Shown here piece after piece: positions 943-29,141 of a DNA stretch of 32,000 bases. Below the pieces are notes generated by a model. The model was not told the DNA's origin and ran no database searches. It was given only the letters and a program-made list of their open reading frames with translations. How positions within the stretch are numbered: position 1 is the stretch's first letter; each line of letters begins with the position of its first letter. The stretch is from an uncultured Alphaproteobacteria bacterium (GTDB taxonomy: Bacteria; Pseudomonadota; Alphaproteobacteria; Rs-D84), in assembly GCA_963931495.1 (NCBI GenBank), contig OZ007020.1, positions 210,001-242,000 of the forward strand. The letters are read 5' to 3'. The translations under genes and the position numbers were made by a program.

Positions 943-964
943 TAAGATAATAAAGAGGTTTTTT

Positions 965-2002
965 ATGGATAGTAAGGTAAAAATACCGACAGGAATGTTT
1001 GTTTTCAATGTAAAGAATGGCACACGTACTATAAATGCACCATTTTTTAATAATAATATGTGGTTTACTCAGAAACAGATTGCAGAAATTTTTGAAACAG
1101 ATGTGTCTGGTGTTAGTCGCCATATTTCTAATATTTTGGCAGAGGGTGAAATAGATGAAAATAAGGCATTTGCAAAATTTGCAAAAAGCGAGAAATCCGA
1201 ATCTTACCCGATAAATCCAGAACCTGTTCATTATAGTTTGGATGTAGTCATTTCTGTTGGTTATCGTGTTAATTCGAAGAAGGCAACGGAGTTTCGTATT
1301 TGGGCGACAAAGGTGCTTAATGATTATATTCAAAAAGGTTTTGCCTTAGATGACGAACGTTTTAAACAAGGATATCAGACCGATAAACAATACTTTAAAG
1401 AATTGCGCGAGAGAATTAAGGAAATTCGTGCAAGTGAACGTATGTTATATCAACAAATTAAAGATATTTATGCTTTGTCGGCAGATTATGATAATAACCG
1501 TCAACAGACAATGTTGTTTTTTGCAAAGGTTCAAAATAAACTTTTGTTTGCGATATCTGGAAAGACAGGTCCAGAAATTATTCATAGTAGAGTCGATTCA
1601 AATAAAGAAAATATAGGGCTTACATCATTTAAAAATTCTCCGGATGGACGCGTGACAAAACAGGATGTAGAGATTGCTAAAAACTATTTACAAGAACCTG
1701 AAATGAAAGAATTAAGATATATTGTAAACCTATTTCTTGATTATGCAGAACATAAGGCTGAATCAGAAGAGAAAATATTTATGAAGGATTGGGAGGTATT
1801 ATTAGACGATTTCCTAGCGTTTAATAAAAAAGAAATTTTACCGAAAGCCGGTTCGATTTCTTTAGAAAAGGCTTTAGAAAAAGCCCATAACGAATATTTT
1901 AAATATCGCGAAAATCTAAAATTGGTCGAAAAGAAAAATTCAGAGATAGAATATAAAGAAGATATCAAAGAGCTTGAAAAAATTTTAAAAACAACAGAAT
2001 AG
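965..2002 (+). CDS. rhuM: RhuM family virulence/Fic-DOC-associated protein
   Basis: The segment LDVVISVGYRVNSKKATEFRIWATKVLNDYIQKGFALDDERFK matches the conserved RhuM core as I remember it. An AGAGG RBS lies upstream of the ATG. Confidence 0.75.
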   Translation: MDSKVKIPTGMFVFNVKNGTRTINAPFFNNNMWFTQKQIAEIFETDVSGVSRHISNILAEGEIDENKAFAKFAKSEKSESYPINPEPVHYSLDVVISVGYRVNSKKATEFRIWATKVLNDYIQKGFALDDERFKQGYQTDKQYFKELRERIKEIRASERMLYQQIKDIYALSADYDNNRQQTMLFFAKVQNKLLFAISGKTGPEIIHSRVDSNKENIGLTSFKNSPDGRVTKQDVEIAKNYLQEPEMKELRYIVNLFLDYAEHKAESEEKIFMKDWEVLLDDFLAFNKKEILPKAGSISLEKALEKAHNEYFKYRENLKLVEKKNSEIEYKEDIKELEKILKTTE

Positions 2003-2010
2003 GTTTTGTT

Positions 2011-3156
2011 TTGCATAAACATAATAATAAATTTAATTTTACTAAATCTGATATAGAAAAACTTACCCCGCCTGAAAAGGGGGTCATTACATATTTTGAT
2101 ACGGGGTTTAGAGGGTTAAAATTATATGTTACTGCCAATGGTGTAAAAACTTTCTTTGTTCGCAAAATGGTTAATGGTAGAGATGAGCGTTTTATTTTAG
2201 GGCAATATCCAGACTTAAGTATTCAAAACGCACGAGATAAAGCCTTGTTAACTTTATCTGATTTGGCTAATGGTATAAATCCCAATGAAGAGAAAAAAGC
2301 AAACAGAGCTGAACAGAAATTAGGGGATTTGTTTATAGAATTTATGGAACGTTATTCTAAGAAAGAGAAAAAATCTTGGGTATACGACCAAAGAGAGATT
2401 CCTAAATTTTATAGCGATTGGTTTAAAAGACGTCTTTCCGATATAAAAAAGACAGAAATTCAGCGCAGGCATGAGAAAATAAGGGATGAAAATGGATTGT
2501 ATCAGGCTAATAGATGTTTGGAACGCATCAGGGCAATGTACAATAAAGCAATAGAGTGGGGCTGGAAAGGTGATAATCCGACATCAGGTATTAAGAAATT
2601 TAAAGAAATTAAACGTGATAGGTTTTTACAACCAAATGAAGCAAAGGATTTTTTTGAATCTTTAAAGTTAGAAGAAAATATAATTATACGTAATTATTTT
2701 TATATGGCGTTGTTTACAGGTGCGCGTAAAACGAACGTTCTTGAAATGCGCTGGGAACAAATAGATATGAAAAGTGCTTTGTGGCGTATTCCAGATACAA
2801 AAAATGGGGAACCTGTAGTAGTTCCTTTGATTTCTTATGCCATGGAATTATTACGTTCTATGCCAAGAATATCGGAATGGGTGTTTCCTAATAGTAAGTC
2901 TAAAAGTGGGCATATAGAAGACCCTAAAAAAGCATGGAATCGTATTTTGCGTAGGGCAAACATAGAAAATTTAAGAATCCATGATATTCGTAGAACAATG
3001 GGGAGTTGGGAGGCTTTAACTGGTGCTAGTATGCTTGTTATTGGAAAGTCGTTAGGACATAAATCCACCAGCGCAACACAAGTTTATGCTCGTTTAACAA
3101 ATGACCCAGTTAGAAATAGCATGGAAAAGGCTATAAATACATTTATGGAAGGTTAG
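2011..3156 (+). CDS. int: Tyrosine recombinase/integrase, P4-like with an N-terminal arm-binding (DUF4102-type) domain
   Basis: The N-terminus GLKLYVTANGVKTFFVRKMVNGRDERFILGQYPDLSIQNARDKA is typical of the P4 integrase arm domain. Catalytic signature: TGARKTN (Arg), HDIRRT (His-x-x-Arg), GHKSTSATQVYAR (His...Tyr). The start codon is TTG in the ORF track. Confidence 0.9.
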   Translation: MHKHNNKFNFTKSDIEKLTPPEKGVITYFDTGFRGLKLYVTANGVKTFFVRKMVNGRDERFILGQYPDLSIQNARDKALLTLSDLANGINPNEEKKANRAEQKLGDLFIEFMERYSKKEKKSWVYDQREIPKFYSDWFKRRLSDIKKTEIQRRHEKIRDENGLYQANRCLERIRAMYNKAIEWGWKGDNPTSGIKKFKEIKRDRFLQPNEAKDFFESLKLEENIIIRNYFYMALFTGARKTNVLEMRWEQIDMKSALWRIPDTKNGEPVVVPLISYAMELLRSMPRISEWVFPNSKSKSGHIEDPKKAWNRILRRANIENLRIHDIRRTMGSWEALTGASMLVIGKSLGHKSTSATQVYARLTNDPVRNSMEKAINTFMEG

Positions 3157-3161
3157 TTAAT

Positions 3162-4010
3162 ATGAATATAAATAATTTTCTAAATATTCCAGATGTAATA
3201 AATAAAGCAGAATATCTATCTGTAGACTGTGTAGATTTGATAAATAGTATAGATTATTCGCAGGAAAGTGCTTCTTATTTGCTTAATGCGTATTCTCTTG
3301 CGCTGGTAATGTTCTTTTTTGAATCTTCGTATTATGACGCTTTAAATCAAGATATGGTCTTACCGACAAATGACGATATTTATTCTGTTATAGATTTTAT
3401 ATTATCAGAGGCTCAAAAGTGTCCAGTTGGAGATTTGCCATATATGGATTTTTTGTCATTAGAAAATAGAAATTTAAAATACGTTATTAAAGATACGGGT
3501 GTGGTTGTTGGGTATTATGCCTTTGTGTCAGCTTTAATATTATATGTTCTTGATAATATAATTTTAATGAATGTATCAAATAAATCTGAAAAAAACATAA
3601 TCTTGACGACCGCTTGTTTGAGTAATTTGTTAAATAGATTATATTCTGGTATAGATGTTTTTAGAAGTATTCCTGCTATTTATTTAAGGAATTTTATTCA
3701 GTTTTTAGTAAATATACATGATGAATCTGTACTGAAAAAAGTAGCAAAAGAATCGAAAAGAAAGCTTGCTGGTAGTGGTGGTGCGAAAAAAGCTCAAAAT
3801 ATAAGAGAAAGACGTAAAGCAGTATATGATTTTATAGATATAACGGTAGATTCTATAAGTGGTAGTGCAGCTCATAAATCTCAGGTTTTAGCAAATAGAA
3901 TTCGTAAAAATACAGAGTTGTTCGATTTGGTTGGCGATATAAATATTCTTGAGGATTGGATAGCCGAGTATTTAAAAAAGAAGAAAAATAAAAAGTTGGG
4001 GTTCTGCTAG
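3162..4010 (+). CDS. Hypothetical island protein (282 aa, Lys-rich C-terminus)
   Basis: A long ORF starts 5 nt after the int stop codon. I recognise no family. Confidence 0.55.
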   Translation: MNINNFLNIPDVINKAEYLSVDCVDLINSIDYSQESASYLLNAYSLALVMFFFESSYYDALNQDMVLPTNDDIYSVIDFILSEAQKCPVGDLPYMDFLSLENRNLKYVIKDTGVVVGYYAFVSALILYVLDNIILMNVSNKSEKNIILTTACLSNLLNRLYSGIDVFRSIPAIYLRNFIQFLVNIHDESVLKKVAKESKRKLAGSGGAKKAQNIRERRKAVYDFIDITVDSISGSAAHKSQVLANRIRKNTELFDLVGDINILEDWIAEYLKKKKNKKLGFC

Positions 4011-4080
4011 TAGCACCCCATGACTATTGTTTTATATGGTTTTATATTTCCTATGTATAGAATTACAAGGAGATATAAAA

Positions 4081-4275
4081 ATGTCTGAAAAATTACATGA
4101 AAACGATTTTTTAAATCAAAAAGAAGTTTCGGCTATTTTGGGAGTGAAGGTAACTACTTTAAATCATTGGAGGTGTATTAAGAGATATAATATTCCTTAT
4201 ATAAAAATAGGGCGGGTGATTTTGTATCCAGAACAAGAATTCAAAGTTTGGTTGAACCAGTATATGAACAAATAG
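4081..4275 (+). CDS. AlpA/excisionase-type helix-turn-helix DNA-binding protein
   Basis: This is the internal Met of ORF 4027..4275, preceded by an AAGGAG RBS. LNQKEVSAILGVKVTTLNHWRCIKRYNIPYIKIGRVILYPEQEFKVWL fits the MerR-like HTH_17/AlpA pattern. Confidence 0.75.
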   Translation: MSEKLHENDFLNQKEVSAILGVKVTTLNHWRCIKRYNIPYIKIGRVILYPEQEFKVWLNQYMNK

Positions 4276-4290
4276 GTTGGTGGTAGAGTT

Positions 4291-4779
4291 ATGGATTACA
4301 ATAATTGTTATACACAAGTTTTTAATAGTCTTATTTTTGATGAAAGCCTCTCGGTAAATGCGAGATTTGTGTATATATTGTTTGCTAGTAAAAAGAATAT
4401 GCAATGGGTTTGGTATAAAAGCAATATAATGAAACTTACTGGTTTTGGTCGAGATAAAGTGACTTTTGCTATAAATGAGTTGCAAATGGCGGGTTGGATA
4501 AAAAGTGTGTTTGCCAGAAAAAATGGGCGGTTTAATGGGTTAAAAATAACTGTAAACGATAAACCGGCTACTGAAAAACCGTTAACGGTCGATACGGTAC
4601 ATATAAATAAAGATAATAAAAATAATATAAATAATAAAAATAGAAGTAATTGTCTTATATCAAATCTTAAGAATGAGCTGTATTATAAAACTAAAAAAAT
4701 GGTTGTACCGAATGTACAACAAACTGCAATCGATGTAGAACAAGTACAACAGAAAGTACAACACAATATAATTTATTGA
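4291..4779 (+). CDS. Winged-helix DNA-binding protein (possible replication/iteron-binding or regulatory protein)
   Basis: ARFVYILFAS...IMKLTGFGRDKVTFAINELQMAGWIKSV looks like a winged-HTH recognition unit. The 3' end of the gene carries GTACAAC repeats. Confidence 0.5.
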   Translation: MDYNNCYTQVFNSLIFDESLSVNARFVYILFASKKNMQWVWYKSNIMKLTGFGRDKVTFAINELQMAGWIKSVFARKNGRFNGLKITVNDKPATEKPLTVDTVHINKDNKNNINNKNRSNCLISNLKNELYYKTKKMVVPNVQQTAIDVEQVQQKVQHNIIY

Positions 4780-4831
4780 TAATACAATATATTTTTATAT
4801 AAAAACGCCGTTCTGTTGTACTTTGTTGTAC
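4703..4831. repeat. Cluster of six 7-bp GTACAAC/GTTGTAC repeats (iteron-like, inverted arrangement)
   Basis: GTTGTAC occurs at 4703-4709, 4815-4821 and 4825-4831. GTACAAC occurs at 4714-4720, 4744-4750 and 4756-4762. Arms 4744-4762 and 4815-4831 form a ~20-bp imperfect inverted repeat around an AT-rich spacer. Confidence 0.6.
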
Positions 4832-5265
4832 TATTTTTGTGCTTTTTCATATTCGGGATTTGGAATATATTTTGGTTGTATATATTTTATTTTTTGAACA
4901 GTTCTTTTGCTTCCAAACGAATTTGTATATTTATAAGTACCGTCTTTTATAAAACAGTGTTCTGGTATGCTCATTACTTTATCGTCATACATTGTATTTA
5001 GGTAATCGTCATGTATTTTTACAAAAAATAATATTTCTGGGTCTGATTTTATGAACTGGTTTTCTGATATATAGTCTAATAAATAAACTAATATACCGTC
5101 GTTTGTTACAGAAACTACCTGCATTCCATCTGGAAACATTTCGCAGTCCGGATTTTTTATTAATTCTGGTACCGGTGCTCCAAAAGCTAGATAATATAAG
5201 TCTGATATACTGTAACTACAAGCACTTACAAATAAAGATATTAAAAGAATAAAAAAGTTTCTCAT
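4831..5265 (-). CDS. Island-encoded lipoprotein, function unknown
   Basis: MRNFFILLISLFVSACSYS has a signal peptide plus lipobox V-S-A-C. An AGGAG RBS (complement of 5272-5276) lies upstream. The gene is preceded by structured-leader copy C. Confidence 0.7.
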   Translation of the reverse strand: MRNFFILLISLFVSACSYSISDLYYLAFGAPVPELIKNPDCEMFPDGMQVVSVTNDGILVYLLDYISENQFIKSDPEILFFVKIHDDYLNTMYDDKVMSIPEHCFIKDGTYKYTNSFGSKRTVQKIKYIQPKYIPNPEYEKAQK

Positions 5266-5276
5266 ACTATTCTCCT

Positions 5277-5476
5277 AAATAAATACAGTCGCTGAAAGAG
5301 CGACTGGGAGTTGGTAACTACAATACGATAGTGCGCCATATTGGCACAAAGGCTTATTTTGACGCCTCCCAGCCATGAGCTGTGAAGCGTGCAAAGTTTC
5401 GTCTTACACAGACGCGTATTGAAGGGTTACCACACCCGTCGAAATTTACTCTACAATAAAAAACAAATAAAATCAA
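5277..5476 (-). promoter_or_regulatory. Structured RNA leader/sRNA, copy C (promoter + ~165-nt conserved structure + intrinsic terminator)
   Basis: On the minus strand: TTGATT (5476-5471), 17-nt spacer, TAGAGT (5453-5448). Conserved blocks follow: ACCCTTCAATACGCGTCT-loop-AGACGAAA. The long helix CTGGGAG (5372-5366) pairs with CTCCCAG (5310-5304). The terminator is GTCGCTC-TTTC-AGCGAC (5303-5288) plus a T-rich tail. It is alignable by eye to 15614-15819 and 24377-24587. Confidence 0.6.
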
Positions 5477-5497
5477 ATCCTTGATTTTGTTAATTGT

Positions 5498-7165
5498 ATG
5501 ATATACCATGAAAGCATTAGAAATAGGCTTAAAATGGAAGATTTAGAACAGTTTTTAAATAATCTTGGTTGTGAAGATGAACATACTGAATTTAAAGAAG
5601 CAAAAAATAACTTCAGTATATTGGGTGACTTTAATAAAAGAAATTGTATTTATGCTTATAGCGTTGCTATCGGAAACGAAGGCGGGGGATGTCTTGTTTT
5701 TGGAATTGATGATAAAAAACGTGTTGTAGGAACAAATTTTCCAAAAGACTCTTTTGTTTCCGTCAGAGAAAAGATTTATGATAAAACGAAGCAAAGATTA
5801 AAAATAGAAGAGAAGCTTTTTAATGGTTCAAGAATTGTTGTTATAAAAATTCCGAGCAGACCTTTTGGTGAATATTTTTCGTTTTATGAAGTGCCTTTAA
5901 TGAGAGTCGGACAAGAGTTAAGAACTATGAGTAGGGAGAGAATGCAAGAGATTCTTAATGAAACTAGGGTGGATTGGACAGGGCAAGTTGCAGAAAATGC
6001 TTCTGTTGATGATATTGATGAAAATGCTATATTGAAGGCTAAAGAAAATTTTGCAACAAAATTTCCAAATATTAGCAAAGAAGAAATAGACTCTTGGGAT
6101 GTTAAAGTTTTTTTGGCTAAAGCTAAATTATTAAATAATGGTAAGATAACAAATGCCGCTTTGATTTTGTTAGGTAAAGAAGAGTCTAAGATTTTGCTAC
6201 AACCCCATGTTGCTGAAATAACATGGGCGTTGAAAACAGATACAGGCGATACTCTGGATTATAAGCATTTTGCGCCACCGTTCATAATAGCCATAGATGA
6301 AGTTTTTAAGAAAATCAGAAATTTAAAATATAGATATATGAAAACTTCTGGTTCTTTATTCCCTGAAGAAACGGACCAATATAATTCTTATGTGATAAGA
6401 GAAGCGTTGAATAATTGTATTGCACATCAGGATTATTCAAAATGCGCTAGAATAACGGTTGTTGAGAAATCAGATAGTTTGGTTTTTACGAATGAAGGCA
6501 CTTTTATACCAAAGACAATAAAAGCTGTTATAGATACAGATATGCCACCACGTTGTTATAGGAATAAGTTTTTAGCGGAAGCTATGGTAAATCTGAATAT
6601 GATAGATACAGTTGGAAGTGGTATTAAACGTATGTTTGCAGAACAAAGGGCGCGTTTGTTCCCTTTGCCGAGTTATGATTTTTCAGATGATAAAGTAAAA
6701 GTAGAGATTTTTGGTAAAATTATAGATGTTAATTATGCTAGATTGTTGGCTAAAAACACAGATTTGTCTTTAGACGATATAATTTTATTAGACGCCGTTC
6801 AGAAGAAAAAAACGATAGAAGCTGATGCTGTTAGACGTTTAAGGAAGAAGGGGTATATAGAAGGAAGGTCGCCAAATATTTATATTTCCGCTATGGTTGC
6901 CGAAAAAACAGGCGCTGTAGGCGAATATTTAAATACAAAAGGTTTAGATAATAATTATTATAGAAAGTTAATATTGGATTATTTAAAAGTTAGTTCTGCT
7001 AAAAGACGTGAATTAGAAGCTTTTATATTACCAAAATTATCTAGTTTGTTAACTGATACCCAAAAAAAGAAAAAGCTTGAAAATATTCTGAATAGAATGA
7101 GATTAAAAGGGCTTATTGTAAATAGTGGAAACGGTAAACAATCTGTGTGGAGTTTGAAAAAATAG
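5498..7165 (+). CDS. AlbA_2 (Schlafen-like) DNA-binding domain / HATPase_c_4 ATPase-like protein, often annotated RecG-like transcriptional regulator
   Basis: The N-terminus EDEHTEFKEAKNNF...GGGCLVFGIDDKKRVVG is AlbA_2-like. The middle region REALNNCIAHQDYSKCARITVVEKSDSLVFTNEGTFIP is HATPase_c_4-like. The C-terminus is wHTH-like. The true start may be the Met at 5534 (MEDLEQF...). Confidence 0.65.
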   Translation: MIYHESIRNRLKMEDLEQFLNNLGCEDEHTEFKEAKNNFSILGDFNKRNCIYAYSVAIGNEGGGCLVFGIDDKKRVVGTNFPKDSFVSVREKIYDKTKQRLKIEEKLFNGSRIVVIKIPSRPFGEYFSFYEVPLMRVGQELRTMSRERMQEILNETRVDWTGQVAENASVDDIDENAILKAKENFATKFPNISKEEIDSWDVKVFLAKAKLLNNGKITNAALILLGKEESKILLQPHVAEITWALKTDTGDTLDYKHFAPPFIIAIDEVFKKIRNLKYRYMKTSGSLFPEETDQYNSYVIREALNNCIAHQDYSKCARITVVEKSDSLVFTNEGTFIPKTIKAVIDTDMPPRCYRNKFLAEAMVNLNMIDTVGSGIKRMFAEQRARLFPLPSYDFSDDKVKVEIFGKIIDVNYARLLAKNTDLSLDDIILLDAVQKKKTIEADAVRRLRKKGYIEGRSPNIYISAMVAEKTGAVGEYLNTKGLDNNYYRKLILDYLKVSSAKRRELEAFILPKLSSLLTDTQKKKKLENILNRMRLKGLIVNSGNGKQSVWSLKK

Positions 7166-7300
7166 TCTTAAACCTTAATTTTGGACGGATTTTTTTGATT
7201 TTGAGTGAATTTTTTTATAAAAATCGTTAAAAAATCCCAGATTTGTGGTATTTTTTTTGAGAAAAAAGAGTTTTATTTTAGAAGTTTTAAGTAGAGTTAA

Positions 7301-7319
7301 TTCGGCAACGATTCGGCAA
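7301..7319 (+). repeat. Tandem TTCGGCAA motifs in 11-bp phase (candidate arm-type sites, right end)
   Basis: taaTTCGGCAAcgaTTCGGCAAtagaga lies about 73 bp from the att core at 7392. It matches the pair at 924-942. Confidence 0.45.
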
Positions 7320-7360
7320 TAGAGATTTTGTTCAAATAATATGTTTTTGCTATGATAAAT

Positions 7361-7383
7361 AAAAAAACCGCAGATTTCTGCGG
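7361..7383 (-). terminator. Island-supplied rho-independent terminator for the reconstituted tRNA-fMet
   Basis: On the minus strand, CCGCAGA-AATC-TCTGCGG is followed by a T7 run (the A-run 7361-7367 on plus). It lies immediately 3' of the tRNA CCA end. Confidence 0.7.
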
Positions 7384-7391
7384 TTAAATCT

Positions 7392-7468
<77 letters not shown>

Positions 7469-7481
7469 TCAAACGGGTGGT

Positions 7482-10889: not shown

Positions 10890-12161
10890 GTGTTTTCCTT
10901 GGTCAATCAAGTTGTAACAATTAACAGAAAAAAATATGCCGTCGGTTTATTTTGGCAGCCAACGGGGGCGGGTTATGTCGCGCGTAATTATGCGCGTTCG
11001 TTGGCACGCAGTGTTGATAAAAAACTGAATCTGTTCACAGAATATCGTGGCATGGTCGGACTGGGGGCACGACGTCTGGGGCATCGCAGTGGTATGGACA
11101 GTATTGCCGCCGCAGTAACAGATGCGCTGGGGGAATATACGTCGTTTTTGGCGGTGTTCGCAATTGATAAAGTTTTTTTATTGGTTGCGGTGCGTAATGG
11201 CGTTATTCTGGAAGATAAACTGTTAACCAGCGAAGCGGATGCGCGTGCCGAATATTTTCGTTTGTCTGAAATCCCAGATTGGGGCGCATTGTTTGCGCCA
11301 AGTGTATGGGGAATGCCGCGTGCCGTTGAACGCAACATCAGTGATGTGATATTTCGTTCGGCGCGTTCAACTTTACGGCCAATCAGTCGGGTTGGCGCAA
11401 TATTGTTTTCGGCAATATTACTGGTATTATTTGGAATTGGGGCGTTATGGTTCTTTCGTGAACCATTGATGCAAATGATGATGCCCCAGCCATCTGTGGA
11501 AGAAATCAGTCCGGAATTGGCCGCAGAATATGAAAAACAAGTGGCACAAAAAAATAAAGAACTGGATGAACAGTTTGATATAGAAAAGCCGCAACCACCA
11601 CAACCATTGGAAATGCCGTATGATTATTTGCCAGATGCAATGGCGCGTGCCCAGGTGTGTTATCAGGCGATTGGTTTTTTAATGCAACCAATCACAGGTT
11701 GGGAACAAGTTTCTGTTGAATGTGGTGAAACACATGCGGATGTTGTTTTTAACCGCACGTTCGGAACAATTGGTGATTTTTATTCCGTGGCAACAGAAAT
11801 AATGCCGGCATCGTTCGTGCAACAACAATCTGATAATACGCTGTATGTACGTGTGGCATTGCCATCGGTTAAAACACATGCGTCATTGGATGAACGCGAT
11901 GTTGAAACAGTGTACCGCGCCGTTCAGACGGCATTTCAATCAATTGACACACCGGTTGATGTCCAGATGGTTGTTGATACATTAACAAATGGATTTGAAA
12001 CAGCCCAGTTGAATATCATAGAAGTTGCCGCAGAATCAAAACTGATTCCGACGCAATTTATGCATATATTTGACGATTTTGGTGGTGTGTATATGACGCG
12101 ATGTGCATGGGATGTGTCAACGCGTACATGGAACTATGAGGTGATAATCTATGCTAAATAA
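10890..12161 (+). CDS. PilO-like type IVb pilus accessory protein (R64 PilO / PilO2 type; GspL-like bitopic topology)
   Basis: The N-terminal motif KKYAVGLFWQP resembles the PAP_PilO family as I recall it. It has a ~165-aa cytoplasmic part, one TM helix (VGAILFSAILLVLFGIGALWFF) and a ~230-aa periplasmic part. It is the first gene of a tightly packed operon with GspE- and GspF-type genes. The start codon is GTG. Confidence 0.5.
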   Translation: MFSLVNQVVTINRKKYAVGLFWQPTGAGYVARNYARSLARSVDKKLNLFTEYRGMVGLGARRLGHRSGMDSIAAAVTDALGEYTSFLAVFAIDKVFLLVAVRNGVILEDKLLTSEADARAEYFRLSEIPDWGALFAPSVWGMPRAVERNISDVIFRSARSTLRPISRVGAILFSAILLVLFGIGALWFFREPLMQMMMPQPSVEEISPELAAEYEKQVAQKNKELDEQFDIEKPQPPQPLEMPYDYLPDAMARAQVCYQAIGFLMQPITGWEQVSVECGETHADVVFNRTFGTIGDFYSVATEIMPASFVQQQSDNTLYVRVALPSVKTHASLDERDVETVYRAVQTAFQSIDTPVDVQMVVDTLTNGFETAQLNIIEVAAESKLIPTQFMHIFDDFGGVYMTRCAWDVSTRTWNYEVIIYAK

Positions 12162-12879
12162 ACAAATGTTTTTATCTGTGTTTTTGATGGCAATTTTGTT
12201 GTCGGCACCAATGGCTGGGTATGCAGCAGATTCAAGTACAGATAACGCGGTTATCGCAACTGTACCAATTACCGAAGATGTTGCGATGGAAATGGAAGAT
12301 TTGTCGGCAAACGCGGTTGCCGCATATGATATTGAAGGTTCGTTGTTCCAGCAAATAACCAATCTGGAACAAGAAAAGGTTTTGATGGAACTGGAAAAAG
12401 AACGCGCGCAATTGGATTTAGAACTGGATAGATTAGCCGCAGAAAAAATTAAACTGCATATGGAAATTGACTCTTTGTCTGGACGTGCAGAACAGCAACA
12501 ACAAGAACTGGAAAATGCCCAGGCAAAACTGGAAGCCGAAGCACAGCGTTTGGAACGTGAAAAAGAGGCTTTGGCCGCACAAACAGAAGAACTGGAATCG
12601 CGCAGTGCAACAACCACAACAACATCAATGACAACAAACAATAACACTGAATCTGTGCCGGTGGTGCAATTTGATAAAAAATATCGGTTGATAAATGTTA
12701 TCGGTGCCGGAAATCAGTTACAGGCAACAATCCAAGATTTGAATACCGGGCAAAACAAAACAATCAGTGTTGGCAAGGTGCTTGATGGATATACGGTAAA
12801 ATCAATATCTGTGGAAGATGGAATTATGTTTGATAATGGGGATAATTCACAAACGCTGAATATCAGCAAGGCAGACTGA
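12151..12879 (+). CDS. Periplasmic coiled-coil protein with a PilP/GspC-HR-like C-terminal beta domain
   Basis: It has a signal or anchor sequence (MFLSVFLMAILLSAPMAGYA) and a long E/Q/L-rich coiled coil. A Thr/Asn linker follows. The C-terminus YRLINVIGAGNQLQATIQDLNTGQNKTISVGKVLDGYTVKSISVEDGIMF resembles PilP. It overlaps the upstream gene by 11 nt. Confidence 0.45.
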   Translation: MLNKQMFLSVFLMAILLSAPMAGYAADSSTDNAVIATVPITEDVAMEMEDLSANAVAAYDIEGSLFQQITNLEQEKVLMELEKERAQLDLELDRLAAEKIKLHMEIDSLSGRAEQQQQELENAQAKLEAEAQRLEREKEALAAQTEELESRSATTTTTSMTTNNNTESVPVVQFDKKYRLINVIGAGNQLQATIQDLNTGQNKTISVGKVLDGYTVKSISVEDGIMFDNGDNSQTLNISKAD

Positions 12880-12884
12880 TTAAC

Positions 12885-14522
12885 ATGAATGATAAAGAAA
12901 AAGATGTTTTGAACAAGGATTATGGGGATTTAAAGCCGTCAATTCCGGCTGGGTTGGAAAATGCAGAAAACAAGGATATTGTGGATTATCTGTTTTCAAA
13001 TGGCAATCGTTTGTTGACCGCAACCGGGGCAGAGCAAGAATTACCCAAAGATACCCAGGGGCTGGTTGCGTATTTTTCAGGTGGTGAAATTATTGTTTCA
13101 CGGACACATCGCTATGACGGGCGTGTGTTGGCGTTTTTAGATTTATTGAAAAAACGCGGTCGCCCAATGCGAATACCGTTTTATTCTGATTTGGGTTTGG
13201 TTTCCAGTATTTACAAGGCATATGAAAGTCGTCTGGGCGGAATTTCGCGTTCACGCCAGGATTATGACAATCAAATGCAAAAAGATTTTGTTGATATAAT
13301 TGCCAAGGCGGCCGCACAAAAGGTGTCGGATATTCATATAGAAGTTGCCGATCAAACAACAATATTCTTTCGTATTGATGGCAGTATGCAGCCGGTGTTG
13401 GAATATAATGCAGGTTGGGGGGAATCTTTTGTTCGTGCGGCGTTTGCATCGTCTGATATGTCAAATGCAAACTATGCGCAAAATGAATACCAGGCCGCCC
13501 AAAAAGATGGGCGCACACCGTTGCGCGGGACCAAGGATTTATACCTGCCGCGCGGAATTTTAAGTATTCGTATGCAATTTAATCCAATCGCGTTCGGCAG
13601 TCGCTATGTCGTAATGCGATTGTTGTATGACAACCCATCCGAAGGTATAAAAACAGAGCAAGAATTTGGTGAATACGAGCAAAAATTATTAATGCGATTA
13701 CGTTCTTTCCCAACTGGATTAGTTATTGTGGCCGGACCAACCAGTTCTGGGAAATCAACAACATTGGTGCGCAATATGTCATTGATGTTAAAAGAGCATC
13801 ATTATGAAATTAATATGATTACAGTGGAAGATCCGGTTGAACAAAAAATATTTGGCGCGCACCAGATGCCGGTCGTTAATACCACAAATGAAGAACAGCG
13901 CGAAGAAAAATATACCGAAGCCTTGGCCGCCGCGTTACGCAGTGACCCAGATACACTGATGGTTGGTGAAATTCGTACGTTGGCCGCCGCGCAATTGACA
14001 GTGCGTGGGGCGTTATCAGGCCATAATGTGTGGACCACACTGCACGCGAATTCGGCAATGGCGGCGTTAACACGTTTGTTGGATTTGGGTATAGAAGCGT
14101 TTAAGTTAAAAGAAGAAACACTGATGCGTGGGTTGATTTCTATGCGCTTGTTCAAACAATTGTGTCCGTATTGTCGGGAAAGACTGATTGACCACCCGGA
14201 AAATCCAGCGTATCGTCGTGTTATGGATGCGTTTGGGGAATTAGGACTGCGCCAAGTGTATATTCGTGGCGCAGGATGTGAAGAATGCAAGGGAACCGGA
14301 ACATTGGGGCGTATCAAGGCCGGTGAAATTATAATTACAAACAGTGAATTTTTACGCATGGCATTGGCGGGTAATACCGATGGCGCAGTTAAGTACTGGT
14401 TGGAAGAAATGGATGGGCGTACGTTAAAAGAAGCCGCAACGTCATTAATGTTACAGGGGATAATCGGTGTGGATGAATTAGAACGCTGGGTCGGATTGCT
14501 GGATCGGCCGGGGGTATATTGA
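12885..14522 (+). CDS. GspE/PilB-family secretion ATPase (R64 PilQ-like)
   Basis: Motifs present: Walker A GPTSSGKST, Asp box ITVEDPVE, Walker B DTLMVGEIR, His box GHNVWTTLHAN, and a tetracysteine Zn motif CPYC...CEEC. Confidence 0.9.
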   Translation: MNDKEKDVLNKDYGDLKPSIPAGLENAENKDIVDYLFSNGNRLLTATGAEQELPKDTQGLVAYFSGGEIIVSRTHRYDGRVLAFLDLLKKRGRPMRIPFYSDLGLVSSIYKAYESRLGGISRSRQDYDNQMQKDFVDIIAKAAAQKVSDIHIEVADQTTIFFRIDGSMQPVLEYNAGWGESFVRAAFASSDMSNANYAQNEYQAAQKDGRTPLRGTKDLYLPRGILSIRMQFNPIAFGSRYVVMRLLYDNPSEGIKTEQEFGEYEQKLLMRLRSFPTGLVIVAGPTSSGKSTTLVRNMSLMLKEHHYEINMITVEDPVEQKIFGAHQMPVVNTTNEEQREEKYTEALAAALRSDPDTLMVGEIRTLAAAQLTVRGALSGHNVWTTLHANSAMAALTRLLDLGIEAFKLKEETLMRGLISMRLFKQLCPYCRERLIDHPENPAYRRVMDAFGELGLRQVYIRGAGCEECKGTGTLGRIKAGEIIITNSEFLRMALAGNTDGAVKYWLEEMDGRTLKEAATSLMLQGIIGVDELERWVGLLDRPGVY

Positions 14523-14523
14523 T

Positions 14524-15594
14524 ATGACAAAATTAGATTTACTGTATGCGAAACTGGTTTTCAGATTAAATACAGAAAAACGTATGGCCACCGCACGCAA
14601 GTTGGCGTCGCTGTTACGTAATGATTTTACATTGATGGATGCATTAAATCGTCTGGAAATGATTGAATCGCATGGCGGAACAAAGCCAGATGAACCATTT
14701 GCAATTGTTATGCGTGAATGGCAGAAAAACTTGGAACGTGGTATGAGTTTTTCGGATGCAACACGCGGATGGGTGCCACCAGATGAAACATTGTTGGTCA
14801 CGTCTGGGAATTTGTCTGATTTGGTTGTCGCGCTGGAAAATGTCAGTCGCGTTGTTGATGGAACCCAACGAATAAAGCGGGCAATGACCAGTGCCATTGC
14901 GTATCCATTGTTTTTGTTGATATTAACGTTTGGTATAATAATGCTGGTTGGGGTATATTTGGTGCCCCCGTTGGCCGAAATTGCGGGTGATAATATTATA
15001 TGGCGCGGAATGGCGGCGTCATTAATATGGATATCTGAATTTTCAATAAAATATTGGCCGGTTGTTTTAGGGATATTTATTGCGCTGGTTGCGATTGTGT
15101 GGATAAGTTTACCAAACTGGTCGGGTCGGCTGCGCGCGAAATTTGATAAATTGCCCCCGTGGAATGTGTATAAAATTCAAATGTCTGTGGGTTGGTTAAT
15201 GAGTTTGTCGGCCATGGTCGCCGCCGGAATTACAATCCCAGATGCAATGCGTATGTTGGCGGACAGTTCAAATAAATATTTACGCAGTATTTTGGATGAA
15301 ACACTGCACTATATTGCAAATGGTGATAATTTGGGTGTGGCGCTGAATAATGCTGGGCGGGGTTTCCCGAATACAGAAATTATTGGGGATTTGGCGATAT
15401 ATGCCGATATGAATGGTTTTGATGAAAATCTGGGGCGGGTGGCAAACGATTATTTGGAAGAATCTGTGCGTAAAATGGAATCTGTGTCATCGGCGTTGAA
15501 CAGTTTTGGAATATTGTTGGTATCGGCGATTATTGCGTGGGTTGTACTGGGGACGTTCCAGATGCAAGATCAGATTACCGCCACACTCAGCTAG
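14524..15594 (+). CDS. GspF/PilC-family inner-membrane platform protein (R64 PilR-like)
   Basis: It starts 1 nt after the ATPase stop codon. It has duplicated T2SSF-like segments and three hydrophobic helices (for example AIAYPLFLLILTFGIIMLVGVYLVPPL). Confidence 0.85.
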   Translation: MTKLDLLYAKLVFRLNTEKRMATARKLASLLRNDFTLMDALNRLEMIESHGGTKPDEPFAIVMREWQKNLERGMSFSDATRGWVPPDETLLVTSGNLSDLVVALENVSRVVDGTQRIKRAMTSAIAYPLFLLILTFGIIMLVGVYLVPPLAEIAGDNIIWRGMAASLIWISEFSIKYWPVVLGIFIALVAIVWISLPNWSGRLRAKFDKLPPWNVYKIQMSVGWLMSLSAMVAAGITIPDAMRMLADSSNKYLRSILDETLHYIANGDNLGVALNNAGRGFPNTEIIGDLAIYADMNGFDENLGRVANDYLEESVRKMESVSSALNSFGILLVSAIIAWVVLGTFQMQDQITATLS

Positions 15595-15613: not shown

Positions 15614-15819
15614 TTGTTTTTTTATGAATATATAGGTATCATATATATGACATTGGTGTATTGCCGATGTTGGGCTTCATCACCCTTCGTATATGCGTCT
15701 TGCTGACGATAAAAGCTCCTGCAATAGGCAGGAGTGCAATGCCATATATTGAAACCATTGCGCTATTTACATATACGAATAGTGATGAAGCTCCTGCCGC
15801 CAAATTATTGGCGGCTTTT
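15614..15819 (+). promoter_or_regulatory. Structured RNA leader/sRNA, copy A (promoter + conserved structure + intrinsic terminator)
   Basis: TTGTTT (15614-15619), 17-nt spacer, TATCAT (15637-15642). The conserved block starts at 15671. Hairpin CGTC-ttgct-GACG follows. CTCCTGC (15716-15722) pairs with GCAGGAG (15728-15734). The alternative long helix is GGCAGGAG (15727-15734) with CTCCTGCC (15791-15798). The terminator is GCCGCCAA-ATTA-TTGGCGGC (15796-15815) plus TTTT. RBS AGGAA and the ATG at 15837 follow. Confidence 0.65.
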
Positions 15820-15836
15820 GATGATAGGAATAATGT

Positions 15837-22800: not shown

Positions 22801-23358
22801 TTAAAAGTTATATGTGAATCCGGCACCGTAAAACGCGTATGAATTATTTTCGTCGGCCGTGTTCGCGTTTGAAAAATGTTGAATGAATAATTCCAGTGCC
22901 CATCGGTCATTTATTTTATATCCACCCATTAATTTGAACTGGAACAATAATTTTGCACCCAGACGTTCGTTTTGTTGTGCCTGTAACCCGACGCCAATAC
23001 CCGTGGCAAAGTACCATTTTTCATTATGGAACAGCGCGATATCTTCGGATAAAAATATCATCGGAATTGTGAATTTTTTCCAATCCCATCCATACTTTTC
23101 ACCCCATCCAATCGTTTGGCCAATATTAATGGATTGACGTGCCGGTAATTTGAAAAATGTTGTCGGTTGCGAATATTGAAAGTGCACAAATGTAAACGGA
23201 ACCCATTGTGTTGGTGGGGGTATAATAAAACCACTGTTTACCCCAGCGCCAAGATGCAACGCAAACTGATTATCATAATTGCCCGTAAATGGGTTGTCTG
23301 ATGCGTGCGCGCACATGGCAAAAAACAGCGAAAAAATTGCAAATGCGACCTTTTTCAT
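22801..23358 (-). CDS. Outer-membrane beta-barrel acyloxyacyl hydrolase, PagL-like lipid A deacylase
   Basis: It has a signal peptide MKKVAFAIFSLFFAMCAHA and alternating beta-strand pattern. The C-terminus is aromatic (FTYNF). An HFSNA motif resembles the PagL His/Ser catalytic motif. Confidence 0.55.
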   Translation of the reverse strand: MKKVAFAIFSLFFAMCAHASDNPFTGNYDNQFALHLGAGVNSGFIIPPPTQWVPFTFVHFQYSQPTTFFKLPARQSINIGQTIGWGEKYGWDWKKFTIPMIFLSEDIALFHNEKWYFATGIGVGLQAQQNERLGAKLLFQFKLMGGYKINDRWALELFIQHFSNANTADENNSYAFYGAGFTYNF

Positions 23359-23438
23359 ACGCAGAATATATAATATATATATAATATTTGCAATATTAAT
23401 TTATTAAAAAATATAATGAATTTTTTGTCGCGACGCAA

Positions 23439-24356
23439 TCAATCGTTATACAGTCCTGTTTCACGGGCAACGCGCCACCAGTGGTCCGAAAATATCGGGC
23501 GACGGTCCGGCGTATGCCATGGTTTAAGCCAGTTGGAATAATGCATAACAACCAGATTATATTTCAAATCGTCAATTTCATATTCACTGTGCGCGCGGAA
23601 TATCCATTTACCCAGCATTGTTTGAAAATTATATTTTAATGGTAAAAATACTATGCGGCCACGCAATGAATAGTTTAATAAATCCTGGTCAGGATTTTTA
23701 TAGCGCTTTATTTGTGATATGCGCAGCCATTTGTCATAGATTTTTTCAGTACGAATTCGTTTCAAATTCATAACCAGAAATCCAGAATTTACATAACCGT
23801 TCGGATAATCGCGTACCGCACCTAATATGTTTTTCCCCATGTCCATGCGATCCAATTCAATCAGGTCATCAAAAAATAGTGTATCTATGTCGGCATAGAT
23901 TACTTTATCAACATCTGGTAACAGTTTTGGCAGCCCCAGTCGCCACCAAACTGCTGCGGGCCAATTGCAACGATATGAATTGTCAAAATCATTCAGTGCG
24001 GTTAAAAATATCACGCGTGATTTTGTGCCATGCGTCATTTTTGATACTGTGCGACGGTGGGCGGTCGGCACCCCGTCATCAACAACGCAATATATGTCGT
24101 AATCACACCGATTTTCTGATGCCATAACCAGCGATTTTATGGAAACACATGCCTGTTTATATCCGTTATCATTAAAGCAAAACGCAACCGAAATCCGATT
24201 TTCATATTTTTTCATCGGTAACCTGGGGCGGGGTGTGGTGGATAATATATTATGAAATCTGATTTTGTCGCGAATTTGCCGACGATTTGTTTTGGTCCAC
24301 CCGAATACAGATGCAACAGTTGCAATTCGTTCACGCTGTTTCCAATTTATACGCAT
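23439..24356 (-). CDS. Glycosyltransferase family 8 (LPS core glycosyltransferase-like)
   Basis: GT8 hallmarks are present: a DxD region YADIDTLFFDD, NSGFLVMNL and DQDLLN. The ATG at complement 24354-24356 is preceded by an AGGGGG RBS and leader copy B. An alternative start is MKKYENR at 24215. Confidence 0.8.
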   Translation of the reverse strand: MRINWKQRERIATVASVFGWTKTNRRQIRDKIRFHNILSTTPRPRLPMKKYENRISVAFCFNDNGYKQACVSIKSLVMASENRCDYDIYCVVDDGVPTAHRRTVSKMTHGTKSRVIFLTALNDFDNSYRCNWPAAVWWRLGLPKLLPDVDKVIYADIDTLFFDDLIELDRMDMGKNILGAVRDYPNGYVNSGFLVMNLKRIRTEKIYDKWLRISQIKRYKNPDQDLLNYSLRGRIVFLPLKYNFQTMLGKWIFRAHSEYEIDDLKYNLVVMHYSNWLKPWHTPDRRPIFSDHWWRVARETGLYND

Positions 24357-24376
24357 ACAGGCCCCCTGATGTTGAA

Positions 24377-24587
24377 TAAAAAGGCCGTCGTTTTTATAAA
24401 GACGGCAGGAGTTTCAACACTATTGTATGCGTAATAGCGCACAGCTTTCGGTATATAACAGTGCACTCCTGCCGTTATAGGGCAGGTGTTTTACGTCCGT
24501 GCAGACGCGCATACAATGGGTGTTGAATCCCAGTATCAGAACCCCTGATACAATTCCTATGATAAAATTGTGTGCGAAAAAAATCAA
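24377..24587 (-). promoter_or_regulatory. Structured RNA leader/sRNA, copy B (promoter + conserved structure + intrinsic terminator)
   Basis: On the minus strand: TTGATT (24587-24582), 17-nt spacer, TATCAT (24564-24559). The conserved block starts TGGGATTCAACACCC (24532-24518). Hairpin CGTC-tgcacg-GACG follows. CCTGCC (24486-24481) pairs with GGCAGG. The long helix is GGCAGGAG (24473-24466) with CTCCTGCC (24411-24404). The terminator is GCCGTC-loop-GACGGC (24406-24384) plus a T-run (24382-24377). Confidence 0.65.
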
Positions 24588-24647: not shown

Positions 24648-24724
24648 GGCGGGATAGCTCAGCTGGTTAGAGCAGTGGAATCATAATCCACGTGTCGGGG
24701 GTTCAAGTCCCTCTCCCGCTACCA
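24648..24724 (+). tRNA. tRNA with CAU anticodon (elongator tRNA-Met or lysidine-modified tRNA-Ile2; not resolvable by eye)
   Basis: GGCGGGATAGCTCAGCTGGTTAGAGCAGTGGAATCATAATCCACGTGTCGGGGGTTCAAGTCCCTCTCCCGCTACCA is 77 nt and folds as a cloverleaf. The anticodon loop is ATCATAA. CCA is encoded. Position 1-72 is a G-U pair. Confidence 0.85.
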
Positions 24725-27189: not shown

Positions 27190-27371
27190 GATGATTTTTT
27201 GGGGGCGGGGCGATGATGTGACTGACAACCACGGAGTTTCCAAATCCCAGTTAAAGTGATAAATCAGGGTGGCACCGCGCAATAAAAATTGCGCCCCTGA
27301 AATATTAAAAACGTGGGTGCCGTTTCCAAATCTTTTTGAATGTGGTGCCCAAAATAAAAAAAGGGACCAAA

Positions 27372-29141
27372 ATGTTATCGTTGAAATCAAAATACAGAAC
27401 GCATACTTGTGGTGAATTGAATAAATCACATGTCGGTGAAACAGTGACTTTGTCTGGGTGGGTTCATCGCAAACGTAATCATGGGTCACTGTTGTTTATT
27501 GACCTGCGCGATAATTATGGAATCACCCAGTGTGTGTTTGATGGCGGGGATGCAGATTTAGAACGTGTGCATCCAGAATCTGTGATTCAAATTACAGGGA
27601 ATGTTGTTGCGCGCAGTGATGATGCAGTTAATGACAAAATTCCAACCGGGGAAATAGAGGTCCAGGCGACAGATTGGCATGTGCTGACAAGTGCAGATGT
27701 TTTGCCGTTCCCAGTGTTCGGCGATGATGACAGTGTTGCCGAAGATCTGCGATTAAAATATCGCTATATTGATTTGCGGCGTGAATCTTTGCATCGCAAT
27801 ATTTTAATGCGTAATCGTATGGTAAAGTTCATTCGTGACCAAATGTGGAATATGGGTTTTTCAGAATTTCAAACACCAATTTTAACGGTGTCCAGTCCCG
27901 AAGGGGCACGTGACTTTATCGTGCCGTCGCGCAATCATCATGGTATGTTTTATGCGCTGCCCCAGGCACCACAACAGTTTAAGCAACTGATACAGATATC
28001 TGGGTTTGACCGCTATTTTCAAATTGCGCCGTGTTTTCGTGACGAAGATTTACGTGCCGACAGATTATTAGAATTCTATCAATTGGATTTGGAAATGTCC
28101 TTTGTTGATTTGCCAGATATCCAGGCTGTTGGTAACGAATTAATGCCGGCATTAATTCGTGAATTCGTTCCAGATGCCAAGATTTGTCCGGAAATACCAC
28201 ATATCGCATTTGATGACGCGATGATGAAATATGGTACGGATAAGCCTGATTTGCGAAATCCAATAATTATTCACGATGTGACGGATATATTCCGGGGATC
28301 TGATTTTGTTATCTTTGCCAATGCCATTGACAATGGCGCCGTTGTTCGTGCCGTGCCGGCACCAAACAGTGCGGATCGGCCACGTTCGTGGTATGATAAA
28401 CTGGGTGATTATGCGGTCAAAGAATTAGGACTGGGGGGACTGGGGTATATTGTCTTTGCCGATGAAGCCAAGGGCCCGGTTGCCAAAAAACTGGATGCGG
28501 CACGCAAGGAAAAATTGCGCCAGATTTCTGGTGATAATTCATCATTGTTTTTTATCTGTGATGTTGCAGAAAATGCCGCCAAAGCCGCAGGTAAATTACG
28601 TACTAAATTGGGCGAAGATTTAGGATTGATTGATGAAAAAGAATTCCGGCTGTGTTGGATAGAAGAATTTCCGTTCTTTGAAGCCGATCCAGAATCACCC
28701 ACAGGAATTGCATTTACGCATAATCCGTTTTCATACCCAATGGCGACATTGGATGAATTACAGACGCGTGACCCACTGTCTATCAAGGCGGCACAATTTG
28801 ATATGGTATTAAATGGTGCAGAAATTTGCAGTGGCGGATTGCGGAATTTTAATCCTGATGTTATGTTGCGCTGTTTTGAAATTACTGGGTATGATGAAGA
28901 AACGGTTAAGCAAAAGTTTGGTGGAATGTATCATGCGTTTCAATATGGTGCACCACCGCACGGCGGGTGTGCGTTCGGTTTGGACAGATTGGTGCAAATC
29001 ATGCTGGGTGAACCGAATTTGCGTTCTGTTGTGCTGTTTCCGACCAACCAACGTGGTCAAGATTTGATGATGGGGGCGCCGGGTCCAGTTACAGAAACAC
29101 AACTGCGCGAAGATCATATCCAAGTGCGTAAAAAAGGATAA
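27372..29141 (+). CDS. aspS: Aspartate--tRNA ligase
   Basis: This is the internal Met of ORF 27336..29141 (MLSLKSKYRTHTCGEL...). It has an OB-fold N-terminus ending in LLFIDLRDNYGITQ. Class II motifs FRDEDLRADR and GGCAFGLDRL are present. Confidence 0.93.
   Translation: MLSLKSKYRTHTCGELNKSHVGETVTLSGWVHRKRNHGSLLFIDLRDNYGITQCVFDGGDADLERVHPESVIQITGNVVARSDDAVNDKIPTGEIEVQATDWHVLTSADVLPFPVFGDDDSVAEDLRLKYRYIDLRRESLHRNILMRNRMVKFIRDQMWNMGFSEFQTPILTVSSPEGARDFIVPSRNHHGMFYALPQAPQQFKQLIQISGFDRYFQIAPCFRDEDLRADRLLEFYQLDLEMSFVDLPDIQAVGNELMPALIREFVPDAKICPEIPHIAFDDAMMKYGTDKPDLRNPIIIHDVTDIFRGSDFVIFANAIDNGAVVRAVPAPNSADRPRSWYDKLGDYAVKELGLGGLGYIVFADEAKGPVAKKLDAARKEKLRQISGDNSSLFFICDVAENAAKAAGKLRTKLGEDLGLIDEKEFRLCWIEEFPFFEADPESPTGIAFTHNPFSYPMATLDELQTRDPLSIKAAQFDMVLNGAEICSGGLRNFNPDVMLRCFEITGYDEETVKQKFGGMYHAFQYGAPPHGGCAFGLDRLVQIMLGEPNLRSVVLFPTNQRGQDLMMGAPGPVTETQLREDHIQVRKKG

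Follow-up and report, generated by a model that had tools for sequence, protein, structure and literature searches.

A lineage-restricted leader RNA family with terminator and antiterminator folds in gut Alphaproteobacteria of the order Rs-D84

What kind of element separates a secretion-like gene cluster from the gene of a predicted secreted protein in an uncultured alphaproteobacterium of the order Rs-D84? We analyzed 32,000 nucleotides (nt) of its DNA (assembly GCA_963931495.1, contig OZ007020.1, positions 210,001 to 242,000). This whole stretch is the window, and coordinates refer to it unless a locus is named. The element at 15614-15836 (copy A) had been described from the letters alone, without database searches, as a structured RNA with two further copies in the window (copies B and C). 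We call that description the sequence-only reading. The copies belong to a previously undescribed, lineage-restricted family of leader RNAs of about 170-190 nt. It is of the terminator/antiterminator/anti-antiterminator kind. Two folds, each with its own covariation, are found in the family. They exclude each other on geometric grounds, and the terminating one is the more stable. We consider it likely that the RNA acts in cis, as a 5' leader that switches between two states of transcription termination. In these tiny-genome gut Alphaproteobacteria, it is probably a major on/off switch for surface genes. To our knowledge, gene regulation in Rs-D84 or in Candidatus Enterousia has not been studied so far.

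Architecture of the leader in the window

Copy A lies on the plus strand and presents the following elements. The minimum free energy (MFE) structure, open reading frames (ORFs) and Shine-Dalgarno (SD) sequences are referred to by their abbreviations.

15614-15619 and 15637-15642, plus strand: promoter-like site, -35 TTGTTT and -10 TATCAT with a 17-nt spacer
~15649, plus strand: predicted transcript start
15649-15671, plus strand: 5' hairpin of the MFE structure, directly abutting the GGG
15672-15695, plus strand: 5' strands of P0 (GGG), P1a (CTTCATCAC), internal-loop CC and P1b (TTCGTATATG)
15696-15708, plus strand: P2 hairpin, CGTC-ttgct-GACG
15716-15734, plus strand: P3 hairpin, CTCCTGC-aatag-GCAGGAG, whose 5' arm CTCCTGC is the proposed anti-antiterminator
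15727-15734, plus strand: P3 3' arm (G)GCAGGAG, putative antiterminator strand GGCAGGAG, SD-like
15736-15761, plus strand: P4 hairpin, GCAATG...CATTGC, with a conserved A/U-rich loop (ATATA..GAAA; GAATA in other copies)
15763-15782, plus strand: P5 hairpin, CTATT...AATAG, in the alternative fold only and incompatible with P1
15770-15793, plus strand: 3' strands of P1b (CATATACGAA), internal-loop TA, P1a (GTGATGAAG) and P0 (CTC)
15791-15798, plus strand: tail CTCCTGCC, partner of the 5' GGG (P0) in Fold I and of the P3 3' arm in Fold II
15796-15819, plus strand: intrinsic terminator, GCCGCCAA-ATTA-TTGGCGGC-TTTT, with an 8-bp stem (6 G-C pairs) and a 4-nt loop
15825-18053, plus strand: SD (TAGGA) and downstream gene, ATG at 15837; 738-aa protein with no Pfam family and a signal-peptide-like N-terminus, Cys-rich according to the sequence-only reading

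The hairpins, the long-range helix between the P3 3' arm and the tail, the terminator with its 3-nt overlap and the ATG all lie where the sequence-only reading had put them. A terminator scanner also calls the terminator. However, that reading had missed the 5' hairpin and the long P1 helix. The latter is an interrupted helix that joins 15672-15695 with 15770-15793 (P0/P1a/P1b). It closes a four-way junction of P2, P3 and P4.

We name this arrangement Fold I. From 5' to 3', it consists of the 5' hairpin, the GGG of P0, P1a, an internal loop (CC opposite UA or U), P1b, P2, an A-rich linker and P3. It continues with P4 (loop AUAUA..GAA(U)A), the J4/1 linker C(U/A)AUU, the returning strands of P1b, P1a and P0, the C-rich tail, the terminator and the U tract. 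Variants of the tail include CUCCUGCC and CCUCCAACC, and its final 3-4 nt belong to the terminator. In copy A, the last 3 nt of the tail are shared with the terminator stem, and the overlap amounts to 3-4 nt across copies. The 5' hairpin, P0 and the terminator are predicted to meet in a three-way junction with almost no unpaired nucleotides. A 5' hairpin with differing stem sequences is present in the MFE structure of copy A and of 24 of the 26 family members. The copy C type lacks it.

The promoter proposed for copy A stands in part. Its hexamers and 17-nt spacer are present. However, the -35 element agrees with the consensus at 3 of 6 positions only, and for this reason a consensus scanner makes no promoter call. 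In most copies the pattern TTGnnT-17-TATnAT ends about 7 nt 5' of the 5' hairpin, which means that the position of the promoter-like site is conserved across copies.

Copies B and C lie on the minus strand.

24375-24587, minus strand: copy B, complete; -35 TTGATT at 24587-24582, -10 TATCAT at 24564-24559
24551-24533, minus strand: 5' hairpin of copy B, followed by the core (24532-24400), the terminator and the U tract
5277-5476, minus strand: copy C, divergent type; -35 TTGATT at 5476-5471, -10 TAGAGT at 5453-5448, core at 5438-5298
Within copy C, minus strand: terminator CAGTCGCT...AGCGACTG with a U tract; no 5' hairpin

Both had been proposed as recurrences of copy A. Covariance-model scores of 115-118 bits for copy B and 65-77 bits for copy C confirm that they are homologous. 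Copy C carries its own P3/tail pair, CUGGGAG/CUCCCAG. The same architecture appears in all three, with folding z-scores against shuffled sequence of -7.4 (copy A), -5.3 (copy B) and -5.8 (copy C). A covariance-model search with the filters off found no fourth copy in the 32-kb window.

Covariation and energetics of the two folds

A MAFFT alignment of the three window copies misplaced copy C. Therefore, more members were gathered first. The window copies have an 18-base seed in common (3 observed against 0 expected in shuffles of the window). We scanned 185,579 species genomes with this seed and obtained 110 stretches. Seventeen of them are true copies with the full architecture, all in metagenome-assembled genomes (MAGs) of animal-gut Alphaproteobacteria. 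The remaining ~93 are chance matches in GC-rich genomes and were later reused as negative controls. In Joint Genome Institute (JGI) metagenomes, 2 of 14 stretches are true copies. The viral contigs gave 6 matches to the 18-base seed, all in GC-rich coding DNA and none a true copy. With a 14-base seed they gave at least 120 matches, by chance only.

Covariance models added 6 copies without the seed pattern. Stretches outside the window are designated here by an L number.

L201:5042-5219
L261:17359-17490
L262:13986-14164
L263:19635-19764
L264:18289-18419
L004:4888-5067

On 712 kb of unrelated control loci, the covariance model found nothing better than E = 0.05. In 96 kb around the other copies it found 1 extra copy. 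The collection reached 27 distinct copies, all in animal-gut Alphaproteobacteria, and the named members are Ca. Enterousia. Pairwise identity among copies is 55-75%, with compensatory changes that preserve the helices.

Covariation for Fold I is strong. In a plain MAFFT alignment of 17 copies, 88.6% of its cells are paired, compared with 38-47% when the partners are slid. This alignment has 19 compensatory pairs and a covariation score of 0.395, while shuffles score 0.143. In a model-fitted alignment of 26 distinct copies, the paired fraction is 94.5% of the cells, with compensatory changes at 28 of 37 pairs. The covariation score there is 0.583 against 0.163 in shuffles. The pairs of P1a and P1b show compensatory changes in up to 16 of the 26 sequences. 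Likewise, P4 shows them at all 6 of its stem pairs. The P2 stem is 100% paired in 25 sequences, and the seed-independent copies carry the variants CAUC/GAUG and CGGC/GUCG. Conserved nucleotides concentrate in the 5' domain (GGG-N7-ACCC, P2 and the A-rich linker), although much of this was imposed by the search pattern.

The second fold was picked by RNAalifold unprompted. Fold II combines P2 and P4 with a GGG:CCC hairpin, a long-range helix in which the P3 3' arm binds the tail, and P5. In P5, J4/1 is paired with the internal-loop side of P1. The P3 3' arm/tail helix would be the antiterminator. It is 96% paired across the 26 copies, and 5 of its 9 pairs are compensatory. There are 9 distinct P3 3' arms, each with its own matching tail. 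Pair 125:196 of this helix lies outside P3, so the P3 hairpin cannot explain it. In P5, 13 copies have U:A at pair 169:187 and 11 have A:U, and L201b has AUCA/UGAU. The sequence-only reading had noticed that GCAGGAG can pair either upstream or downstream, as in an attenuator. Covariation also supports the downstream helix.

Fold II and P1 would be mutually exclusive, judging from their geometry. This is because the tail joins the base of the 20-bp P1, its partner is at the junction, and P5 uses P1 nucleotides.

Calculated energies are -15 to -22 kcal/mol for the antiterminator duplex and -8 to -15 kcal/mol for the P3 hairpin, and the duplex is the stronger of the two in every case. The complete Fold I exceeds a forced Fold II in stability by 4.6-33 kcal/mol, and termination is therefore the default. 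The long P1 helix is the feature responsible for this.

Other pairings were tried and dropped. A pairing of the 5' hairpin loop with ACCC fits copy B only, and a P4 loop acting as a mimic of the P1b 3' strand fits copy A only. A leader-peptide attenuator was also rejected. Copy A could begin with an AUG and code for 19 codons, but its orthologue in L240 stops after 6 and copy B has no start codon at this place. The covariation of the P4 stem as RNA also counts against such a peptide.

Proposed switch and its alternatives

In the proposed switch, Fold I is the OFF state and the default. The transcript would start at its own promoter and fold the 5' hairpin and the P0/P1a/P1b helix around P2, P3 and P4. 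The 3' tail would then take the 5' GGG as its partner, and the strong intrinsic terminator would form. Meanwhile, P3 would conceal the strand able to capture the tail. P3 would thus serve as an anti-antiterminator.

In the ON state (Fold II), P1 would not be formed. The 5' GGG would pair with the internal-loop CCC, and the P5 hairpin would form. The P3 3' arm and the tail would make an antiterminator that surpasses P3 in stability and, by 1-3 bp, in length. Since this duplex is the stronger one, the tail should displace the P3 5' arm whenever P1 is absent. The antiterminator would take 3-4 nt from the terminator stem, and RNA polymerase could read into the gene. The decision would depend on whether P1 forms as its 3' strands emerge during transcription. 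Read-through would need an effector that prevents P1 or stabilizes Fold II. This effector could be a small molecule or ion, or else an RNA-binding protein that targets either the conserved 5' domain or the Fold II junction.

The tail may have an additional role. Its invariant CUCC core is anti-SD-like, and folding of the 3' part by itself pairs the tail with the SD of the gene in most of the 26 copies. It could therefore mask the ribosome-binding site. Translational control by this masking is a possible, weakly supported add-on.

Several points weigh against this model. The promoter, the termination efficiency and the read-through are predictions from sequence only. The 26-copy alignment was fitted to a model that favors Fold I. 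The compensatory changes were counted per sequence and not per evolutionary event, and several of them track a split between two clades. The apparent invariance of GGG, ACCC, GCGUCU and GACG was largely imposed by the search pattern behind the 17 copies. The copies free of the seed pattern number only 6, and even they came from a model based on pattern-selected copies. The stability excess of Fold I is too large for switching by secondary structure alone. Finally, tail-SD pairing occurs in only 3 of 16 full-leader MFE structures.

A classical OFF riboswitch would use the same two folds differently. The Fold I junction would be the aptamer, and the ligand would lock P1 and P3 so that the terminator forms. 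The antiterminator of the ligand-free RNA would be kinetic. We regard this as a possible reading, although a rather unlikely one. The conserved unpaired or invariant nucleotides at the junction, the CC/UA internal loop and the P4 loop suggest a compact tertiary fold, and known OFF switches use the same anti-antiterminator logic. The large regulon of surface genes also resembles those of second-messenger riboswitches. However, P0/P1a/P1b is ~20 bp long and Fold I leads by its 4.6-33 kcal/mol without ligand, so that a ligand-dependent stabilization of P1 seems unnecessary. The downstream genes suggest no ligand, and there is no match to the riboswitch families of Rfam.

The leader can be compared with known riboswitches. 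SAM-I (S-box) and other riboswitches with a four-way junction share with it a P1-closed four-helix junction and an intrinsic terminator that loses its 5' side when an antiterminator strand pairs with it. In both, the antiterminator strand is sequestered inside the folded sensor domain. In contrast, P1 of the Rs-D84 leader is long (~20 bp) and interrupted, the sequestering element is P3 and not P1, and there is no similarity to the Rfam model. Its regulon consists of envelope and surface proteins, whereas that of the SAM-I type is a metabolic pathway. The GEMM-I and GEMM-II riboswitches for cyclic di-GMP and cyclic GMP-AMP (c-di-GMP/cGAMP) are leaders that occur in several copies before genes for adhesins, pili and surface or secreted proteins, and they often carry terminators. 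The Rs-D84 leader has no structural or model similarity to them, as the Rfam scans were negative.

These scans also bear on novelty. With Rfam 15 (4227 models) at the gathering thresholds, the whole window gave 3 tRNAs only. Permissive scans of copies A, B, C and L158 gave only low-scoring noise such as miRNA and SgrS models. The SgrS match on copy B (22 bits) is sub-threshold and was judged spurious. Thus, the earlier failure to recognize a known family holds at both stringencies. A literature search for riboswitches in Rs-D84 found no paper. The leader does share the generic traits of a riboswitch, namely a covarying structured domain and a mutually exclusive terminator/antiterminator platform. 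Nevertheless, the label riboswitch is unproven for it. The sequence-only idea of a structured cis-regulatory RNA is thus borne out by the covariation, the arrangement and the envelope and surface genes behind it, but not as far as that label.

Nearly as probable is a protein-dependent leader that senses no small molecule. Here, the GGG..ACCC hairpin and P2 would be recognized by an RNA-binding antiterminator or by a processing enzyme (for example RNase III on the 20-bp P1). The default-OFF energetics are like those of T-box and Bgl/Sac-type systems, whose weaker antiterminator is stabilized by a macromolecule. T-box and Bgl/Sac (ribonucleic antiterminator, RAT) leaders have, like the Rs-D84 leader, the terminator as default and a weaker antiterminator that needs an effector. 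The Rs-D84 leader differs from these in that it lacks a specifier and a T-box sequence and matches no Rfam family, and its antiterminator is a long-range helix around two hairpins. Both the GGG-N7-ACCC spacing and the conserved sequence of the P2 stem resemble a recognition site, and the long helix could plausibly be an RNase III substrate. However, no candidate protein adjoins the copies, whose neighbors are varied, and the conservation of the 5' domain was inflated by the copy-finding method.

A stand-alone, trans-acting small RNA (sRNA) distantly related to sRNA-Xcc1 seems improbable. Under this explanation, the place of the copies before genes would be incidental or due to co-mobilization. 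The promoter-like site and the strong terminator would suit such an RNA, and Fold I would be a stable RNA of ~170-190 nt. There is also a resemblance to the Rfam family. RF02221 (sRNA-Xcc1) matches the 3' domain of one relative, L250, over the whole model with 35.4 bits (gathering threshold 53; E = 3e-4), and the match coincides exactly with the three-way junction of Fold II. The reciprocal match is weak. The top match of the Rs-D84 Fold II model is a true sRNA-Xcc1 homologue, L265:1500-1586 (18.4 bits, E = 0.0015), in the outer helix only. But the Rfam match is sub-threshold and was not reproduced in four other copies; copies A, B, C and L158 gave none at E up to 1-10. Nearly all copies stand before a same-strand ORF or gene, with no space for another promoter. 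Furthermore, a conserved, covarying second fold that weakens the terminator would be useless to a pure sRNA.

The layouts of both RNAs can be compared directly. In the sRNA-Xcc1 consensus, a three-way junction is closed by a 9-bp G-rich/C-rich helix; it also comprises two hairpins, the first with an AAUA-rich loop, and a UU.GA linker. Fold II of Rs-D84 (antiterminator, P4 and P5) presents the same three-way-junction layout, and it covaries. On the other hand, sRNA-Xcc1 is GC-rich, is described as trans-acting and is found on integron cassettes, plasmids and phages (Xanthomonas integron cassettes). It is ~88 nt long, whereas the Rs-D84 domain forms part of a ~170-190-nt leader that also contains 5' partner strands and a separate terminator. 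The one sRNA-Xcc1 homologue inspected (L265) lacks the long P1, P2, the P3 5' arm and any obvious strong terminator hairpin. We take the resemblance as a lead to a possible distant kinship and not as membership.

sRNA-Xcc1 has been detected as an RNA of ~88-100 nt (PMC2996969). L265:1500-1586 lies on the Pseudomonas aeruginosa plasmid NZ_CP064404.1, 45 nt upstream of a same-strand BRO-family gene. Other copies of sRNA-Xcc1 lie upstream of symE and ORF6N genes, according to published work. Because of these positions, the sRNA-Xcc1 family may itself be a 5' leader and not a free-standing sRNA. A BLAST search of phages with the Rfam sRNA-Xcc1 consensus found nothing, and neither did one of E. coli genomes with the true Xcc sequence.

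A dispersed repeat without a regulatory role, like a miniature inverted-repeat transposable element (MITE) or a repetitive extragenic palindromic (REP) element, or the scar of a mobile element, is hardly credible: there are several copies per genome, copy C is in an integrative island and the leader is not tied to orthologous genes (the GT8 genes of L263 and L264 have none), but the copies are 55-75% identical with structure-preserving changes and not near-identical, keep a fixed orientation and ORF distance, and are few (3 in 32 kb, 1 extra in 96 kb of neighboring DNA). The sequence-only reading had named a scatter in random orientation and position as evidence of such a repeat. Instead, wherever a downstream ORF was identified, it lies on the same strand as its copy. 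The flanks that were read showed no conspicuous terminal inverted repeats or target duplications; no dedicated search for them was made.

The cis-acting termination switch can be extended to a wider hypothesis, which we put forward tentatively and consider doubtful. The leader could be a new class of riboswitch or other RNA switch for one global signal (such as a second messenger, a divalent cation or a cue from the envelope). With an estimated 10-40 copies per 0.9-Mb genome, it could be the main regulator of lipid A/lipooligosaccharide (LOS) modification and surface-protein genes in Rs-D84, and its ON-state junction could be kin to sRNA-Xcc1. If so, the sRNA-Xcc1 of integrons, plasmids and phages would be a remnant or the core of a cis-acting leader switch and not a trans-acting sRNA. 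Such a link, if real, would change the reading of a widely annotated mobile-element RNA.

The presence of one RNA family before lipid A/LOS enzymes, an autotransporter, secreted proteins and lipoproteins suggests RNA control of the whole cell surface, where the bacterium meets its host or partner cells. The leader also offers a clean strand-exchange model, since both states of the bistable switch have independent support from covariation. The parts of the exchange would be the anti-antiterminator hairpin, the antiterminator, the terminator and the 5' GGG as a 'parking' site.

Downstream genes, host range and genomic surroundings

The sequence-only reading had placed each window copy just 5' of a gene. 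This extends to the family, because nearly all copies are followed by a same-strand ORF or called gene. It usually begins 30-55 nt past the end of the modelled core, just after the terminator. Orientation and distance to the downstream ORF are constant. The gap is so short that there is no room for a second promoter.

22801-24356, minus strand (behind copy B): GT8 glycosyltransferase at 24356-23439, then PagL-like lipid A deacylase at 23358-22801
Copy B and five orthologous loci: GT8 glycosyltransferase, then PagL-like lipid A deacylase
4831-5265, minus strand (behind copy C): 144-aa predicted lipoprotein, N-terminus ...LFVSAC, within the integrative island
Copy A and L240: 738-aa secreted protein
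L207/L239: PAP2 lipid phosphatase
L198: Ephrin_rec_like Cys-rich protein
L263: Flg_new repeat protein
L004: autotransporter

Many further downstream genes encode small proteins whose N-termini resemble a signal peptide or a lipobox, as judged by eye. This gene set points to no single metabolite. The leader does not follow orthology. In L263 and L264 the GT8 genes have no leader, whereas other envelope genes nearby have one.

Ca. Enterousia belongs to the order Rs-D84 and comprises uncultured gut organisms with reduced genomes of 0.75-1.0 Mb (PMC12306168). The sequence of the window is matched by the MAG GCA_949282575.1 and by a 958,617-bp metagenomic contig. About 0.4 Mb of Rs-D84 DNA was examined. 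It holds about one copy per 25-30 kb, from which we extrapolate some 10-40 per genome, a rough figure because the samples are biased.

Copies A and B are chromosomal and lie beside gyrB, lpxC and pilus genes. A type IV pilus or type II secretion-like cluster (10890-15594; PilO-like, T2SSE ATPase and T2SSF platform protein) stops 20 nt 5' of the copy A promoter, and lpxK and lpxC are just upstream of this cluster. The 738-aa gene behind copy A is unstable. In strain L003 it is split into ORFs of 190 and 237 aa. In L261 it is replaced by ORFs of 35 and 103 aa with the leader still in front, and in L262 the gene and its leader are both absent. A tRNA-Met gene (24648-24724, plus strand) lies ~60 nt from the -35 element of copy B and is divergently transcribed. 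A database look-up for the 601-aa ORF at 27336-29141 gave no record.

Copy C belongs to an integrative island (900-7470) with a tRNA-Met gene (7392-7468, minus strand) at its border. The island carries RhuM (965-2002), a tyrosine integrase (2011-3156), an HTH_17 excisionase-like ORF, and copy C with its lipoprotein gene. It also holds a Schlafen/AlbA_2 and HATPase_c_4 gene (5498-7165). This slot is occupied by a reverse transcriptase in strain L008 and by a DUF3800 gene in L010, and it looks like a hot spot of defense genes.

Leaders can also occur as a divergent pair. In L201 (5042-5735), two of them lie back to back on opposite strands, ~390 nt apart. The stretch 4141-4240 of L146 (16.6 bits) is a possible decayed counterpart of this pair. 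Finally, a strain of the window species (L004) has an extra insert at 3190-7005 with an autotransporter gene (5254-6342). This gene is preceded by a divergent leader at 4888-5067, which scores 35.9 bits and has an enlarged P2.

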